Below, piece by piece: positions 11,566 through 17,508 of a DNA stretch of 64,000 nucleotides (positions within the stretch are counted from its first letter, which is position 1; every line of letters begins with the position of its first letter). Both the position numbers and the translations under genes were made by a program. Below the pieces are notes generated by a model. The model did not search any database and was not told the DNA's origin. It saw only the letters and a program-made list of their open reading frames with translations. Source of the DNA: a bacterium (GTDB lineage Bacteria; Electryoneota; Electryoneia; Electryoneales; Electryoneaceae); assembly GCA_963669175.1 (NCBI GenBank), contig OY769902.1, positions 3,680,001 through 3,744,000 on the forward strand. Reading direction: 5' to 3'.

Positions 11566-13305
11566 ATGAACAGGTTATTTGCTTTGGTTTCTCTTCTGTT
11601 TTTATTCCTGCTGGTTATCCCTTCCCTTTCCTTTTCCCAGGTATTCCTGAACGAGAATTTTGAACGGGATCAAAACTCCTGGCCCTGGATGACCACTGAG
11701 ACAAGCGGCTGGGAATGTGAGCCCTGGCCTGCCTTTCATCCTGACTACACGTGGGGTGTAGAAAGAGAAGCAATCTATCGTTATATAGGCAATGACTATG
11801 TCCAATCGCTTTGGTGTTGCGGTCTGCCTAATAATCTGATTGCTGGCTCAGATGATTATATGCCCGGGCAGGAATCATGGGCAATATGGGGACCGTTCAG
11901 CACAACACAAGAGCTGATTTCCATTGTGGGGCGGTTTTATTTGTGGGCTGATAGTGAACCCTGGAACGATGGCGAAGGCGACAATTTCTACATGCTCGCT
12001 GCCGAAGATCCTGAATTTACCAATATGGAAGACTGGAACATTGCATTCGATTTGAGCAGTGCCGAAGATTTAGAACCGGGATCATTTAATTGTATCAGTT
12101 TTGATCTTAACCAGACGTGGGATTGGAACGGCAACTCCGTCAATATGATTACGATAGGTGAAGCGACGGACGACCTGTATATAGCATTTGTATTCATATC
12201 TGATGACGATGACAATACCGGTTCTGGCGTCTTCATTGATGATATCTTTATGCACGGGTATCCGGCAGATGTTTTTGATTTCGCGAAACATCAGATTAGC
12301 TTCTGCTTGTATGATGATGGTGAGTATAGAACTACCGATTTACTTTGCATGTCTGACAACTTGTATACATTGAATAACTTTTCTGTTTTTGGTATCACGG
12401 AAATAGAAGTGCAGCATGTTCTGTATGTCAATGAAGATGTGTTGAATCCTGCTTCTGAGTATGTTCCTGTTGATACCATGACTGGGAGATGGTCCGGAAG
12501 CTCAGTTGATTATACCTTTTTTACCCCTCGTTATGAAACTCCCCTGGTTTTTTCCGACACGGGCCTGGTTGGCATTAAAGTTGTTTTGGACGTGGAAAAC
12601 ATTATCGAAGAGACTGACGAGGAAAACAATGTACTGATTGATACTGTAAGAATCCTGATGCCCCAGACACAGCCGGAAATGGAATGGTTGGAGCTTGGCG
12701 GTGCTTATGAGACTGATTCATTGGTCTTTGTTGACCCATCTTCCCCCACCCTCAGTGTACGTTACCATGCAACAAATCATCCTGTTGAAGAATTAGCCAG
12801 TTTTGAATTCTTCATCGGGAGCGACATGGACTCTGTAATACAGAGCATTCCACAAAGCAGAGTCACAATCGACAATGAAGAGCACCTTGCAGAAATCGAC
12901 ATGGCCACCTATCCTCTTGATACGCCTGTCTATTTCGGAGCCTATCTGGTTGATAGGGTAACCGACCCAGTCTATTCTTATGCCCCGAAACGTATTGTAA
13001 GCACAAATTCAGTTGGTGACGATACTGAGAAGGGCGCGATCCCAGGTGAGTTTCAGATTGTATCAGCCTATCCCAACCCCTTCAATCCGACTGTAGAATT
13101 GACCTTCACCATGCCCCAGGCAGGCGAGATTGAACTTCGCTGGTATTCGCTTGAAGGCAGGCTCGTATCACGTCAAATCAGAACCGTATCCGCCGGGTAT
13201 CCAGTCCTGAGCTGGACTCCGGATGGTCTCGCCAGCGGTGTTTACCTGTTGCAGGCGCATACTCCCTTTGGAGTGGCCAATGCCCGTGTTATCTATCTGA
13301 AATAA
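11566..13305 (+). CDS. Secreted acidic protein with CARDB-like segment and T9SS-type C-terminal sorting domain (paralog A)
   Basis: Signal peptide, 'VFIDDI', 'LDVENIIEETDEENN' and the C-terminal 'AYPNPFNP...LASGVYLL' motif. Colinear paralog of 15335-17089. Confidence 0.8.
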   Translation: MNRLFALVSLLFLFLLVIPSLSFSQVFLNENFERDQNSWPWMTTETSGWECEPWPAFHPDYTWGVEREAIYRYIGNDYVQSLWCCGLPNNLIAGSDDYMPGQESWAIWGPFSTTQELISIVGRFYLWADSEPWNDGEGDNFYMLAAEDPEFTNMEDWNIAFDLSSAEDLEPGSFNCISFDLNQTWDWNGNSVNMITIGEATDDLYIAFVFISDDDDNTGSGVFIDDIFMHGYPADVFDFAKHQISFCLYDDGEYRTTDLLCMSDNLYTLNNFSVFGITEIEVQHVLYVNEDVLNPASEYVPVDTMTGRWSGSSVDYTFFTPRYETPLVFSDTGLVGIKVVLDVENIIEETDEENNVLIDTVRILMPQTQPEMEWLELGGAYETDSLVFVDPSSPTLSVRYHATNHPVEELASFEFFIGSDMDSVIQSIPQSRVTIDNEEHLAEIDMATYPLDTPVYFGAYLVDRVTDPVYSYAPKRIVSTNSVGDDTEKGAIPGEFQIVSAYPNPFNPTVELTFTMPQAGEIELRWYSLEGRLVSRQIRTVSAGYPVLSWTPDGLASGVYLLQAHTPFGVANARVIYLK

Positions 13306-13326
13306 GGAAATACTTCCGGTAGGTTT
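13305..13326 (+). repeat. Left terminal inverted repeat of the DUF1670 element
   Basis: AGGAAATACTTCCGGTAGGTTT, preceded by AATA. Confidence 0.9.
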
Positions 13327-13404
13327 GGCGATTTGCTTCTTGTTTGCGACCTTTGTATTCGGGTTGGCAATCGGAAGCGATCGCGTAACATGCTGGAGGA
13401 CAAG

Positions 13405-14238
13405 ATGTTACATACTTCAACGAGCCTGTATGACCGGTGTATGGAGAAGACGCCGGAGCAGGTGTTTGTGAACTCGCTTCGTCGCGAGTTTGAGCTTTCA
13501 CCGGCTGCGAGTACGGGGATATTGGAGCTTGCCAAGCGTTGTTTGTTCGGTACGATGCCGTCAACGCTTGGCAAGCTTCGTTTTTTATGTGCGTCCAAGA
13601 AAGCTCGTCACGGTCGTCCCTTACGCGAACAAGACCTGATTCGTGTCGAACTGACACTGGATGACGGTGTTGAGGACTTGGATGTTCTGCGCGAACTGGG
13701 CGCTTCATCGCTTCGTCAGCAACGGATTCTTCGGCTAACCGAAGAGACGTACCAGCAGGGTGGGTTGCTGACACAGGAGGATCTGAGTCGTCTGCTGCAC
13801 GTTTCAGATCGGACCATCCGCAAGGATATTGCGTTGCTGCTTGCTGACGGGAATACGGTGCATACGCGTGGCTACGACCATGACATTGGGCGTGGGTTAT
13901 CGCACAAGGCACGGATCGTTGATTTGTACCTGGGTGGCCGGACCTATGATGAGATCATCCGTCTGACACGTCACAGCGCGTTTGCGATCAAGCGCTATGT
14001 GAGTACGTTTGGACGCTTGTTGCTTCTGCTTAGCCATGACATTACCGAGCTGACCGACCTGAGCCGTCTGCTTCAACAGAGCGAACGGTTGACGGGTGAG
14101 TACCTGGATCTGTTTGCAAAATACAAACAGGGTGATCACTGGCCGACAAGCTATGTCGAACTTCTGGAGCAGTTGCAAGCACAGTATCCCTCAAAAAAAA
14201 GAGCGGGACAAGGTGGCGGAGGCGTCCATGAAAACTGA
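13405..14238 (+). CDS. DUF1670-like protein (HTH-containing), ORF1 of the element
   Basis: 'RILRLTEETYQQGGLLTQEDLSRLLHVSDRTIRKDI...TRG..HDIGRGLSHK..IVDLYL.G...HS..AIKRY'. GGAGGA RBS precedes ATG 13405. Confidence 0.8.
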   Translation: MLHTSTSLYDRCMEKTPEQVFVNSLRREFELSPAASTGILELAKRCLFGTMPSTLGKLRFLCASKKARHGRPLREQDLIRVELTLDDGVEDLDVLRELGASSLRQQRILRLTEETYQQGGLLTQEDLSRLLHVSDRTIRKDIALLLADGNTVHTRGYDHDIGRGLSHKARIVDLYLGGRTYDEIIRLTRHSAFAIKRYVSTFGRLLLLLSHDITELTDLSRLLQQSERLTGEYLDLFAKYKQGDHWPTSYVELLEQLQAQYPSKKRAGQGGGGVHEN

Positions 14239-15058
14239 GGTACGGAACCGTTATGAATCCCTGCCGAAGCGGAACTTTCGCACTGCGATCATCCGGTTGT
14301 TGGAAGAGCAGTACAAGATTCTTGGCAGCCACAAGGTCTTGGCCATGGTGGCGGATGACATCATGCAACTGCACCGTGAGTTCTATCCGGATATCGAGCA
14401 ACGCAGCGGTGGCAGTATTGTGTGGCGTACGACAGGTGCACAGTGCCACAAGCCCAGCTATGGGACACGGGTAGAAGACTATGAGGTGAAGACCGTCATT
14501 CTTCCGCTTGTCACTGAAGAAGATGTGGTTGATCGTATTCGTCGCCACTATGGAAAAGACGGTGCGGGCAAACAGCGCGACAGGGATATTGCAGTGCTGG
14601 CGCGGTTGGTGAAAAGCGCGTACGAACAAGGCGGGTTATTAAGCGGCGCGGAATTGAGTGTGTTGTTGAACCGGTCGCTGACGACCATTGGCAAGTACAT
14701 CCAACAGTATCATGAAACGCATGATGACATCCTGCCGACGAAAGGAATCATGTTGGACCAGGGAAGCCGTCCCACACACAAGGCCGCAATCATTGACCTG
14801 TACGAACAGGGCTATCCGGAACCGGATATCGCTCGCTTGACCACGCATACCCTTGAAGCGGTGGGTCGTTACTTGCGATCTTACAAAAACATCAAGTTCC
14901 TGATGGTCAAAGAACTTAATCTGATGGAAATTGTGCGTACTACCGGACTCGGACGTAGTACAGTGGTCCAATATCAGAAACTGGTGATGCAGTATCATCC
15001 TGACCTTAAACCTAAAGATAAACAAAAAGATACAACGAAAAAGGACAAGAAAAAGTAA
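14228..15058 (+). CDS. DUF1670-like protein (HTH-containing), ORF2 of the element
   Basis: 'LARLVKSAYEQGGLLSGAEL..LLNRS..TI...LPTKG..LDQG..PTHK..IIDLY.QG...H...AVGRY'. GGAGG RBS; overlaps ORF1 by 11 nt. Confidence 0.8.
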   Translation: MKTEVRNRYESLPKRNFRTAIIRLLEEQYKILGSHKVLAMVADDIMQLHREFYPDIEQRSGGSIVWRTTGAQCHKPSYGTRVEDYEVKTVILPLVTEEDVVDRIRRHYGKDGAGKQRDRDIAVLARLVKSAYEQGGLLSGAELSVLLNRSLTTIGKYIQQYHETHDDILPTKGIMLDQGSRPTHKAAIIDLYEQGYPEPDIARLTTHTLEAVGRYLRSYKNIKFLMVKELNLMEIVRTTGLGRSTVVQYQKLVMQYHPDLKPKDKQKDTTKKDKKK

Positions 15059-15072
15059 CCACTATCAACTGA

Positions 15073-15094
15073 AAACCTACCGGAAATATTTCCT
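15073..15094 (-). repeat. Right terminal inverted repeat of the DUF1670 element
   Basis: AAACCTACCGGAAATATTTCCT, followed by AATA. Confidence 0.9.
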
Positions 15095-15334
15095 AATAGT
15101 AAATAGACAAGATTTAGAAAGAAGCGTCACTGGGTTATTTCCAAATCACATTTTTTCAGAATATTGCAGGAGAATCATTGTTTGAATCTTGCTTTTTAAA
15201 CTCTCATACAGATATATTTTATCTGTTGGGAGAGGCCACCTTTCAGCACACCGTCGCGCTCTGTTCGGATTTCATAATCCGCAGTAACAGGCGCGTTTTT
15301 CTTTGTACCCAACCATCGACGCGGAGAACTGATC

Positions 15335-17089
15335 ATGAATACGATGCGTGGTACCGTTGTGCTTTCTTTCCTGCTGGTAGCTATTCTTCTGCTACCTATC
15401 TCCACCCAGGCGCAGATGATCCTGAACGAGAATTTTGAGCAGGATTCGGATACCTGGCCATGGACAACTGGTATGACTTCAGGTTGGCAGTGTGCTCCCT
15501 GGCCTGCAACCCACCCGAACAACTATACATGGGGTGTTGAGGACAGTTGTGTATACCATCGCGTCCATGACGGCTGGTATCGATCCATGTTCTGCAATGG
15601 CCTGCCAGACAACCTGAGTCCAGGTATTGACGATTATATGCCCGGTCAGGAATCCTGGGCAGTATGGGGGCCATTCGATGCGACACTGGAAATGGTGACC
15701 GTTATCGGCAACTTCTACGCCTGGTCCGATGTTGAACCGTGGGATGATGGAGAAGGTGACAACTTCTACATGCTGGCAGCGGTTGATCCCCAGGATCTGG
15801 TTATGGAAAACTGGGATATCGCTTTCGATATGGGCAATGATGAAAGCTTCCTTCAAAGCCATTGGACCTCTGTAGGCTTTAACCTGAACCAGATGTGGGA
15901 TTGGGATGGTAATCCTGTCAGCCTGATTCCCGAAGGTCAGGCAGTGGAAGATATCTATATTGCATTCGTTTTCATTTCCGATGATGATGACAATACCGGG
16001 CTGGGTGTTTTCGTTGATGATATCTATGTTTCCGGGTATGACGGCTCGTATGATTTTGAAATTGATGAACCTGACTTCATGGTTTATGAAGATGGCGAGC
16101 TGGAAACATGTTCGGGGTTCACGACGGAAGATGAAGTATATGTCGCAAACAACTTCACCTCATTTGGTCTACCCCTCGAGTATGCGACCAGCCATGTTCT
16201 ATACCTCAATGAAGATGTGATGAATCCTGAATCAGAATATGTGCCAATCGATACCATGACTGCTATCTGGCCAGCCAACCCACTGCTGGGGACCATTATT
16301 GATTCTCTGTTCCAATTGCCTTTGACATTTTCCGATACAGGCTGGGTAGGTGTGAAAATAGTTCTTGACGCTCCTGACGATGTCGTGGAAATCGACGAAG
16401 AGAACAATACCTACATTGACACTTTTTATGTAACCTTCCCGCAGACTCGTCCGGAAATGATTTGGCATGACCTGAACGGAAGCGATGAAACAGATACCGA
16501 AGTAACGGTTGATCTTTCTGAACGTACGACTCTGATCATTGATTACACAGCGATGAATTACCCCATTCAGGACAACGCGACCATTTCATTTGGTATCGGC
16601 GAGGAACTTGATTCTACCGGCAGCTTCATCGGCAGCCTGACCAACCTGACGATTGACAATGAGCAGCATCAGGTTGAATGGGATGTGTCGGACATGCCGC
16701 AGAATCGTGAATTCTACCTGTTTGCTTACCTGACTGACAATGCGACCGCGCCTGTCTACAGTTATGCTTCCCAACAGGTAATCATTATAACCCCGGTCAA
16801 GGATGTATCGTCCGATGCGGGTATTCCTGAGAAGTTCGCAATTGCTTCCGCATACCCGAATCCATTCAATCCGACCGTGGAAGTGCAATTTGCCATGCCA
16901 CAGGCCGGTCAGATTGAAATGCGCTGGTACTCACTGGAAGGACGCCTGGTCGATCACCAGGTAAGAACAGTTTCAGCGGGGTATCCGGTGCTTGGCTGGA
17001 CACCACATAGTCTCGCCAGCGGTGTATACCTGCTACAGGCTGAGACACCGTCCGGGATCGCAAATACAAGGGTGTTTTATCTGAAATAG
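15335..17089 (+). CDS. Secreted acidic protein with CARDB-like segment and T9SS-type C-terminal domain (paralog B)
   Basis: Signal peptide. Shares blocks with paralog A (DDYMPGQESWA.WGPF, EPW.DGEGDNFYMLAA, YIAFVFISDDDDNTG). Ends in an 'AYPNPFNP' domain. Confidence 0.8.
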   Translation: MNTMRGTVVLSFLLVAILLLPISTQAQMILNENFEQDSDTWPWTTGMTSGWQCAPWPATHPNNYTWGVEDSCVYHRVHDGWYRSMFCNGLPDNLSPGIDDYMPGQESWAVWGPFDATLEMVTVIGNFYAWSDVEPWDDGEGDNFYMLAAVDPQDLVMENWDIAFDMGNDESFLQSHWTSVGFNLNQMWDWDGNPVSLIPEGQAVEDIYIAFVFISDDDDNTGLGVFVDDIYVSGYDGSYDFEIDEPDFMVYEDGELETCSGFTTEDEVYVANNFTSFGLPLEYATSHVLYLNEDVMNPESEYVPIDTMTAIWPANPLLGTIIDSLFQLPLTFSDTGWVGVKIVLDAPDDVVEIDEENNTYIDTFYVTFPQTRPEMIWHDLNGSDETDTEVTVDLSERTTLIIDYTAMNYPIQDNATISFGIGEELDSTGSFIGSLTNLTIDNEQHQVEWDVSDMPQNREFYLFAYLTDNATAPVYSYASQQVIIITPVKDVSSDAGIPEKFAIASAYPNPFNPTVEVQFAMPQAGQIEMRWYSLEGRLVDHQVRTVSAGYPVLGWTPHSLASGVYLLQAETPSGIANTRVFYLK

Positions 17090-17508
17090 TTGCCCTGGTT
17101 CAGGCCGCTATTTGTAGAAGTTGCGCGGTTTTTAACTGACTTTTACCATGCGGGTGATCGCATCTTAGCGGTTACCCGCTTTTTTCGCCTTTCCCGACTT
17201 GCTCATCCCCTTCATCTCAGGCCGACGATTTTCCAGTGTCGTCAACATCTCCATAAGGTCCATACTCAACTTCGGCAAATCGGGCCACGCACGCGGTTGA
17301 TTGCGTCATGCAGATATCCGGCCAATCGGACCATACAGTCTGTTTTCCTTTTTCACTTTTTTCACTGTCCACTTTTTTCACTTCTACACATATCATAGAA
17401 CAGCCTCCATTTTGGCTCCTGCAAGAATCTTGTATTCCAGAAAAATTCTCGACAGTTTATGTGATTATTCTGTTTGACCGCTTGAATTGATTGTGGCAAG
17501 GGCTTTCC

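Follow-up and report, generated by a model that had tools for sequence, protein, structure and literature searches.

What moves a short DNA unit whose only genes encode two proteins of the DUF1670 family (Pfam PF07900), and does such a unit move at all? The question is raised by a locus in the genome of a bacterium of the family Electryoneaceae (GenBank assembly GCA_963669175.1, contig OY769902.1), where a pair of overlapping DUF1670 genes, bounded by inverted repeats, stands at the very end of a gene for a secreted protein. The region analysed is a 64-kb stretch of DNA (the window), which corresponds to positions 3680001–3744000 of the 5.45-Mb genome; coordinates are window positions unless stated otherwise. 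A first-pass annotation had proposed a mobile element at this place, with the DUF1670 pair as the mobilising machinery of an undescribed class resembling insertion sequences (IS). The new mobile element is supported by the present analysis, while catalysis by the pair is something we infer. Taken together, the interval 13302–15100 is probably a copy of an active, autonomous and site-specific IS of an undescribed family, with its two DUF1670 proteins as the machinery.

A multicopy element with recent activity

The 1790-bp interval spanned by the repeats is present seven times in the genome, on both strands and at loci distributed across 3 Mb. Relative to the window copy, they have 0, 0, 1, 1, 1, 4 and 5 differences over the 1790 aligned positions (at least 99.7% identical). 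An eighth, diverged copy (67% identity; locus L008) is found 7.5 kb past the end of the window, at about 3751534–3753330 of the chromosome. The copies thus occupy different loci, seven of them near-identical and one diverged, each with its own flanking duplication, as the initial proposal of a mobile IS-like element had implied; the duplication measures 2 bp (see below). The chromosome also holds a left-end fragment of 152 nt (78% identity), and relics of 15–17 nt of the left end directly after the stop codons of two other genes of the target type (Table 1). In Logan contigs from the two public sequencing runs that hold the region, the shared repeat is a unitig of 1803 nt, exactly 13300–15102, with a depth of 157–220 against 24–30 in the flanks, or about 6–7-fold. 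Identity between the copies also ends exactly at 13300 and 15102, beyond which the right flanks are unrelated and the left flanks are similar at the protein level only. The element is real, multicopy and recently active. Of the generic features of an IS, it displays multiple copies at separate loci, defined ends and a 2-bp duplication, and its two genes are candidate genes for its mobility.

A distribution of this kind might also arise if the unit were no transposon at all, and segmental duplication or gene conversion among paralogous genes for secreted proteins had carried the DUF1670 pair along as a passenger regulator. The targets are indeed members of a single large family of paralogs, and about 9 kb separates two occupied genes that are closely paralogous. 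This explanation is very improbable, however, as identity stops at the two boundary positions given above, the same junction rule is seen in other phyla, the copies are on both strands over 3 Mb, and element-free paralogs lack the hexamer found at the right end.

Termini and target duplication

The 22-bp inverted repeats described in the first-pass annotation are real. A repeat search of the window recovered them with 21 of 22 positions matching, and the chance expectation of such a match in a 2.4-kb stretch is, by a rough estimate, about 1e-5. Both arms are adjoined externally by AATA (13301–13304 and 15095–15098), which had been taken for a 4-bp target duplication. That reading was rejected, as AAAC follows the right repeat in the diverged copy of the same genome and in the 12 of 26 relatives with the right terminus AAACGT; the left flank of these insertions still ends in AATA although the right flank reads AAAC. 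The right-hand AATA is a coincidence of this lineage's right terminus.

The boundaries in Table 1 come from 34 compared insertions, consisting of the eight copies of this genome and 26 complete relatives from other phyla. In each of the 26 complete relatives, the pentamer before the left repeat is NNATA. At the other end, the terminus is a lineage-specific sequence of 6 nt (AATAGT, AAACGT, AATAGA or AATACA), and in all seven near-identical copies of this genome the bases downstream of the right repeat are AATAGT, AA, a purine, T and two purines. All eight copies of this genome have the same dinucleotide on both sides of the element, as do 25 of 26 complete relatives, including AG/AG (L034 and L047) and CG/CG (L052) at Arg codons. 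It derives from the target, because two relatives (L034 and L049) with nearly identical left ends have different dinucleotides. The duplication is thus of 2 bp, which is AA in the window, and the distance from repeat to terminus is unequal, with 3 nt on the left and 6 nt on the right.

The six bases after the right terminus read as a Lys or Arg codon plus a stop in all eight copies of this genome and in 25 of 26 relatives, with both the wobble base and the stop being variable. On the left, the first four bases of the element (A plus TAA) complete the split codon to AAA, AGA or CGA, which restores the same amino acid, while the original third base and stop are now placed beyond the right end. 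The protein sequence of the host gene is unaltered. The insertion had previously been located in the stop codon of the gene at 11566; it lies inside the last codon, and the empty site proposed at the time was off by six bases. Two parts of that account hold, namely the change of the original TAG to the present TAA, and an intact target protein, the last codon and stop of which the element rebuilds. The element is co-oriented with its target gene in every case, both in this genome and in the relatives.

The motif in the right flank was also considered as a pre-existing target sequence. This was rejected: the combined pattern of left and right flanks occurs once in the genome versus eight times in the reversed control, and the unoccupied ends of sorting-domain genes do not carry the right-flank sequence.

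Table 1. Coordinates of the element, its target gene and associated features (window positions, except for the last row)
Feature	Position	Strand	Remarks
Target gene, type IX secretion system (T9SS) type A C-terminal sorting domain	11566-13305	+	579-aa secreted protein
Last codon / stop of target gene	13300-13302 / 13303-13305	+	completed by first four bases of element
Left 2-bp duplication	13300-13301	+	AA, bases 1-2 of last Lys codon
Element proper	13302-15100	+	1799 bp; starts ATA-AGGAA, ends TTCCT-AATAGT; boundaries from 34 compared insertions
Left terminal inverted repeat	13305-13326	+	holds 12-bp near-palindrome GGAA-4 nt-TTCC at 13306-13317
Subterminal inverted copy of repeat core (CGGAAG block), leader	13368-13377	+	candidate second protein-binding site
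Conserved block with Shine-Dalgarno (GGAGG) of ORF1	13392-13399	+	invariant columns; second leader copy of repeat core, complementary to it
Open reading frame (ORF) 1, DUF1670	13405-14238	+	277 aa; start is second ATG, after conserved GGAGG, and fits homologue length
ORF2, DUF1670	14228-15058	+	276 aa; overlaps ORF1 by 11 nt; GGAGG upstream; ends 14 bp before right repeat
Right terminal inverted repeat	15073-15094	+	holds perfect 12-bp palindrome at 15082-15093
Right terminal hexamer AATAGT	15095-15100	+	within element; constant in 7 near-identical copies
Right 2-bp duplication	15101-15102	+	AA, same dinucleotide as left copy
Displaced codon remainder and original stop (A plus TAG)	15103-15106	+	six bases past right terminus read codon and stop
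Neighbouring paralog of target gene, end unoccupied (AAA TAG at 17084-17089)	15335-17089	+	584 aa; potential target
Relics, chromosome positions	800637, 2946989, 2071034-2071185, 4737026	n/a	left-end stretches, fragment, 16-nt repeat core

A coding motif as the target

All eight copies in this genome sit after an ORF ending in Gly-x-Tyr-Phe ... Leu-Leu-Lys. The last 100 amino acids of all eight target products pass the model for the T9SS type A sorting domain (TIGR04183, cut-off 23 bits), and so do those of 10 of 10 foreign targets tested, drawn from 21 with enough flanking sequence. For the gene at 11566, the C-terminal 100 amino acids score 29.6 bits with TIGR04183, and the product scores 20.5 bits with Pfam Por_Secre_tail, under the cut-off of 27. 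The diverged copy L008, with its AAACGT terminus, also lies inside the last Lys codon of a TIGR04183 gene.

A logo of about 24 bits was obtained from 32 reconstructed sites (eight from this genome and 24 foreign; L035 and L049 were left out as their flanks are too short). It consists of T at −13, −10, −7 and −4 and AA at −2/−1, followed by R-T-R-R. The corresponding matrix spans −18 to +3 and was built partly from the sites of this genome, so that the genome scan is not a fully independent test: with a threshold of 22 bits all 49 hits are sorting-domain-like gene ends, and with one of 20 bits this is true of 85 of the 87 hits. Among the tabulated sites, the duplicated dinucleotide is mostly AA, with two cases of AG, one of CG and none of TA. 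The logo is the nucleotide shadow of a conserved C-terminal peptide, in which a Lys or Arg and then four hydrophobic residues precede the final Lys or Arg and the stop. At the DNA level, the resulting motif of about 22 nt is enough to single out the ends of sorting-domain genes and can explain the specificity.

By a simple pattern, the genome contains about 305 gene ends of the sorting-domain type. Dozens of potential targets are still free, including the end of the neighbouring paralog, where the sequence previously given for 17078–17090 was read correctly. The target gene and this neighbour are tandem paralogous genes for T9SS cargo, of which only the first is occupied. A genome of the same genus (G001) apparently has a counterpart of the second only: its homologous region is 65–70% identical, the first paralog is missing, and no empty site is found there. 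A tblastn search of a plasmid collection gave no match.

The two DUF1670 proteins

As the first-pass annotation had recognised, two overlapping DUF1670 paralogs fill the interval between the repeats. Both pass the PF07900 gathering cut-off of 25 bits, with 155.3 bits for ORF1 (E 2e-45; scanned from 13390) and 166.2 bits for ORF2 (E 9e-49; match over the full profile), and they share 33% identity over 132 amino acids. There are 469 homologues of ORF1, the best 120 of which are 68–97% identical and mostly 274–279 aa in length, and ORF2 matches 749 cluster representatives at E ≤0.001. Longer relatives are two-fold (485–546 aa) or three-fold (930–952 aa) DUF1670 fusions with no other domain. An alignment query found no fused catalytic domain, which is weak evidence, and a single-protein query returned three longer proteins (485–528 aa) annotated with DUF1670 and helix-turn-helix (HTH) domains only. 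Of the 26 relatives, 24 have both ORFs intact, as do the copies own2 and own8 of this genome; ORF2 is broken in one of the two remaining relatives, and in the other (L054), from a metagenome-assembled genome (MAG) labelled Bacteroidetes, the two are fused into a single ORF of 535 aa at element positions 103–1710. Between the two lineages within this genome, the ratio of nonsynonymous to synonymous divergence (dN/dS) amounts to 0.23 in ORF1 and 0.095 in ORF2, dS being saturated. Comparison of the sequences indicates that both genes are under purifying selection.

In the alignment of the ORF2 family, Gly62, Gly173, His184 and Tyr215 are invariant, and Arg126, Pro170, Asp177, Gly179, Lys185, His207 and Tyr249 are nearly so. 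ORF1 retains the pattern Arg-Gly ... His-Asp-x-Gly ... His-Lys ... His ... Arg-Tyr. For ORF2, AlphaFold2 gives a confident model (predicted local distance difference test (pLDDT) value of 88.4), in which a pair of helices is followed by a beta hairpin, a further helix, a long helix and three HTH units. The model of ORF1 is poor (pLDDT 63.8) and has the same topology. The predicted complex of ORF1 and ORF2 has a score of 0.21 (mark, 0.32), which speaks neither for nor against an association.

Public annotations list close homologues of ORF1 as "biotin operon repressor" or "CsgD family transcriptional regulator", names that were probably assigned from nothing more than HTH_11 or GerE-like units.

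Search for a transposase

No catalytic domain of a known transposase or recombinase class is detectable in either ORF, and in this respect the Pfam, NCBIfam, fold and PDB profile searches agree with the earlier inspection, which had seen no DDE, HUH/Y1, serine-recombinase or DEDD motif. For DDE enzymes, there was no Pfam DDE family at E ≤1, no NCBIfam IS630 model and no match to an RNase-H-like fold. For tyrosine recombinases, PF00589 was not found at E ≤1, nor was such an enzyme among the Foldseek matches listed. The search for serine recombinases gave no resolvase domain, but HTH_7 alone at 17.6 bits (under its cut-off), with the structures 1gdt and 1zr2 at E above 1. Neither HUH (IS200/IS605, IS91) nor DEDD (IS110) enzymes were matched in Pfam or NCBIfam. 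The NCBIfam IS21 model (NF033546) reached 13.1 bits against a cut-off of 160, via the HTH only. The NCBIfam transposase models are built on ISfinder families.

A transposase acting in trans was also sought, including the case, raised with the first-pass annotation, of the same repeats surrounding a canonical transposase elsewhere. Within the present genome, nothing carries the repeat beyond the seven copies, the diverged copy, the fragment and a handful of short solo matches. The complete chromosome of a second carrier (G046) has seven pairs and seven extra hits with 2–3 mismatches, a number equal to that in the reversed control. No other element with the same terminal repeats is present in these two complete genomes, and they contain no transposase-bearing master with the same ends, of the kind that would accompany a miniature inverted-repeat transposable element. 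Transposases of the DDE_3 family are absent from G046, with its seven copies of a related element, and from a further carrier genome. The five DDE_3 genes in the present genome belong to a 1.17-kb element with 23-bp repeats that are unrelated to those of the DUF1670 element. This IS630-like element is present in five identical copies, at 3627807–3628235 of the chromosome and at four other loci (L082, L084, L085).

Exclusion and conservation together make it fairly probable that the DUF1670 pair is the machinery of the element. We give about even chances to the pair being a new class of transposase or recombinase, with a fold unlike those of the DDE, DEDD, HUH, serine, tyrosine and Cas1 enzymes, that would act as a hetero-oligomer, make a 2-bp staggered cut and recognise a target of about 22 nt with the precision needed to enter a single codon without altering the host protein.

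Several observations weigh against the DUF1670 pair as a self-sufficient machinery. Besides DUF1670, Pfam finds only HTH families in the two ORFs and no transposase or recombinase domain; NCBIfam likewise gives HTH-type models and no transposase family, and PHROGs a single weak match of ORF1 to a regulator. With the ORF2 model, Foldseek has no match in the PDB at E ≤0.001, and its best matches (E about 0.2–1) are multi-HTH proteins, namely TFIIB-like and sigma factors. A PDB sequence profile search returned a designed repeat protein only, and an Atlas search nothing at 0.9 or above. The conserved polar residues are all located in or between HTH units, where they could serve DNA binding alone, and the Pro-x-Arg-Gly linker is one that we take to resemble the minor-groove linkers of paired-like domains. 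Cleavage offsets of 3 nt versus 6 nt are not predicted by a simple symmetric transposase model. Among the relatives, L049 has unequal dinucleotides (CG vs AG) and L059 is at a degenerate site. Finally, the public runs, available as contigs only, show neither an empty site nor a circle junction or excision product, although a missing joint in such data proves nothing.

The absence of a catalytic fold or motif from a confident model, and the HTH-only domain content, would be expected if the DUF1670 proteins had only a DNA-binding, targeting or regulatory function, with an enzyme of the host or of another mobile element cutting and joining the DNA. The unit would then be an IS without a transposase. 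Elements that borrow the XerCD recombinase provide a precedent for a borrowed catalyst, and the purifying selection and the intact genes in 24 of 26 relatives fit such a situation just as well as they fit an autonomous element. Yet no partner element shares the ends in the two complete genomes, DDE_3 is missing from two carrier genomes, and the spread of the two-gene unit over several phyla means that the helper would need to be universal. A borrowed catalyst, the main rival, is a possible but rather unlikely explanation.

The nature of the conserved residues raises a different possibility, that the DUF1670 proteins are extremely diverged enzymes of the tyrosine-recombinase type, and that a circular form integrates by site-specific recombination at a core of some 6 bp (AARTRR) common to element and target. 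His184, Lys185 and Tyr215 are invariant or nearly so, as is His207 to a slightly lesser degree; these residues are kept in both paralogs, and their order and spacing (His-Lys...Gly...His...Arg-Tyr) are suggestive. If the ends were abutted, two inverted protein-binding sites would surround an 11-bp spacer, and the left end of the element and the target have AARTRR in common. Still, there is no phage-integrase match at E ≤1 and none among the fold matches listed, the motif is placed on an ordinary HTH, and elements that are nearly identical differ in their dinucleotides. A crossover within a 6-bp overlap was rejected as well: it should give both junction outcomes, but 10 of 10 sites that differ from the element have an element-type left junction and a target-type right junction. 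A tyrosine-type enzyme is, in our judgement, improbable, and the DUF1670 pair acting by a chemistry that is not recognisable continues to be preferred.

Terminal repeats, leader and a possible mechanism

The palindromes within the repeats have invariant outer GGAA and TTCC and a centre that varies across lineages. Among the distinct ends, 11 of 22 on the left and 14 of 22 on the right have a central tetramer that is itself a palindrome, which suggests binding of a dimer at the repeats. In an alignment of 20 left ends, the subterminal block in the leader is conserved, with A68, G72, G73, A74 and A75 being invariant; the same alignment places the start of ORF1 at 13405. RNAalifold pairs the repeat core with the Shine-Dalgarno block of ORF1 over eight base pairs, with almost no covariation; as the columns hardly vary, covariation cannot support this pairing. 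Inhibition of translation by such a fold-back is described for IS10. Speculatively, and by analogy, the pairing in the leader could prevent the translation of transcripts that run on from the host gene. Rfam gave two chance-level hits on the element and no known guide-RNA family, and its antisense ORFs match no Pfam family.

A perfect 16-bp inverted repeat inside ORF1 (13526–13541 and 13562–13577) encodes Leu-Ala-Lys-Arg-Cys and Thr-Leu-Gly-Lys-Leu in its two arms. It is probably not a conserved structure, since 30 relatives keep only the codon-imposed part (Leu-Ala-Lys, Leu-Gly-Lys).

For the DUF1670 pair as transposition machinery, the following scheme may be considered. The two translationally coupled paralogs, each with a small alpha/beta N-terminal domain, a long helix and three HTH units, would act as a hetero-oligomer. 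The pair would bind the palindromic GGAA-4 nt-TTCC in each repeat, together with its subterminal copies. It would then recognise the target motif, make a 2-bp staggered break and join the ends by a chemistry that is not recognisable. As candidate residues for this one may name Arg/Lys-Gly, Asp, His-Lys, His and Tyr, which are invariant in the family and situated between or within HTH1 and HTH2. Complementarity between the repeat core and the ribosome-binding site of ORF1 may silence translation of transcripts that read through from the host. Both a staggered cut followed by fill-in, of the IS630/Tc1 kind, and a 2-bp crossover like that of serine recombinases are compatible with the 2-bp repeat; fill-in is favoured, because the dinucleotide varies among near-identical elements. 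The unequal distances between repeats and termini suggest an asymmetric complex, which a heteromer of paralogs could provide.

Relatives and wider occurrence

A contig scan with an alignment as query, using one genome per species, detected 42 related loci, seven of them in one complete chromosome; a single protein as query found nothing. The ends of such tandem DUF1670 loci, the examination of which had been suggested along with the first-pass annotation, were inspected, and both are present in the same layout at 26 of the 42. Carrier MAGs are labelled Bacteroidota, Ignavibacteria, Neomarinimicrobiota, KSB1, Calditrichia and Lentisphaeria, among others. All 16 PF07900 matches in the present genome form pairs (eight in total), and in five other carrier genomes the domain also always occurs as a tandem pair. 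The distribution within the phylum is sparse, with PF07900 in 2 of 41 sampled genomes, the present one included.

More distant DUF1670 pairs (30–40% identity) were found in MAGs labelled Mollicutes (L069, 150–1861) and Desulfuromonadaceae (L074, 1402–3074). The 15-nt inverted repeats around them match at 15/15 and 14/15 positions respectively and delimit units of about 1.7 kb, each present once and located elsewhere than at the ends of T9SS genes. As single copies, they offer no more than an indication that mobility extends to other DUF1670 pairs. At L074, GACTATT is present on both flanks, at unequal distances.

The longest contig exceeds 5 kb for only 5 of the best 120 ORF1 homologues, and many contigs are about the size of the element. 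Contigs of 5 kb or less for the other 115 fit a repeat that breaks metagenome assemblies.

A repeat of another kind was noticed in the same chromosome. This short, A-rich sequence is dispersed, with 78 matches at up to two mismatches and units such as GTGAAAAA around a 15-nt core. It is mostly situated just after the stop codons of many genes (often AAG TGA), for example at about 17377 on the minus strand, and in some cases a GC-rich hairpin follows. In appearance it resembles a family associated with repetitive extragenic palindromic sequences or terminators.

Implications

Either of the two more probable outcomes would lie outside the known classes. If the DUF1670 pair is the machinery, a class of enzyme would be added to the short and stable list of those that carry out transposition; if the pair only binds DNA, then the unit is a transposase-less IS that recruits a catalyst from the host, which would also be new. 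In the case of a new class, DUF1670 pairs elsewhere, including those of archaea (Methanosarcina) and of bacteria without T9SS, would represent a large unrecognised superfamily of IS with other targets. Hundreds of proteins annotated as "hypothetical", "biotin operon repressor" or "CsgD family regulator" would have to be reclassified as products of mobile elements. A compact (two proteins of ~275 aa) and highly site-specific enzyme would be of interest as a tool for DNA insertion. The targeting amounts to a silent safe-harbour strategy, exploiting a DNA motif that is imposed by a protein and recurs about 300 times in the genome of the element's own host. Insertion parts the genes for T9SS cargo from the sequence downstream, and this may affect both their expression and the evolution of cargo arrays.

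Comparison with known systems

A full-text literature search (supplements not covered) returned no paper that mentions DUF1670 or PF07900, or an element of this type. Similarities to several established systems can be recognised. As in IS21 (istA/istB), two adjacent and translationally coupled genes are located between terminal inverted repeats, but there is no match to the IstA DDE domain and no AAA+ helper, and the two DUF1670 genes are paralogs of each other. In recombination by serine integrases or of the IS607 type, there is a 2-bp crossover and the same dinucleotide flanks the integrated element, while terminal inverted repeats are not typical. The DUF1670 element shares the identical dinucleotide on both sides, and the palindrome in each of its ends suggests the binding of dimers. 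It differs in having no resolvase domain, with gamma-delta resolvase reaching E of about 1 via the HTH only, and the different dinucleotides of near-identical DUF1670 elements are a better fit to duplication than to the fixed 2-bp crossover of the serine systems.

Site- and orientation-specific insertion by a DDE element is represented by the IS1202 group, which inserts next to dif/pdif sites (PMC10132070; bioRxiv 10.1101/2022.12.17.520857). Like the DUF1670 element, members of this group are reported to have terminal inverted repeats and to insert with a single orientation, at constant spacing from a conserved host sequence that recurs. They are also reported to possess a recognised transposase and to use recombination sites as targets, whereas the DUF1670 element hits a coding motif and repairs the split codon and stop.

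The nearest in its working among the systems compared is the IS630/Tc1-mariner group, for example ISY100 (PMC2170065). The features in common with this group are a short element, terminal inverted repeats, a 2-bp duplication and binding of the ends by tandem HTH units, the last being a prediction for the DUF1670 proteins. HTH_23 and HTH_29, which are typical of IS630 N-termini, also give weak matches in the DUF1670 ORFs. The differences concern the two defining features of the group, in that no DDE_3 or other DDE domain is found and AA, AG or CG is duplicated rather than TA, and also the coding content, with a pair of paralogs in the place of a single transposase. What sets the DUF1670 element apart from this group is, in addition, its strict orientation, its target motif of about 22 nt and the unequal offsets of its two ends.

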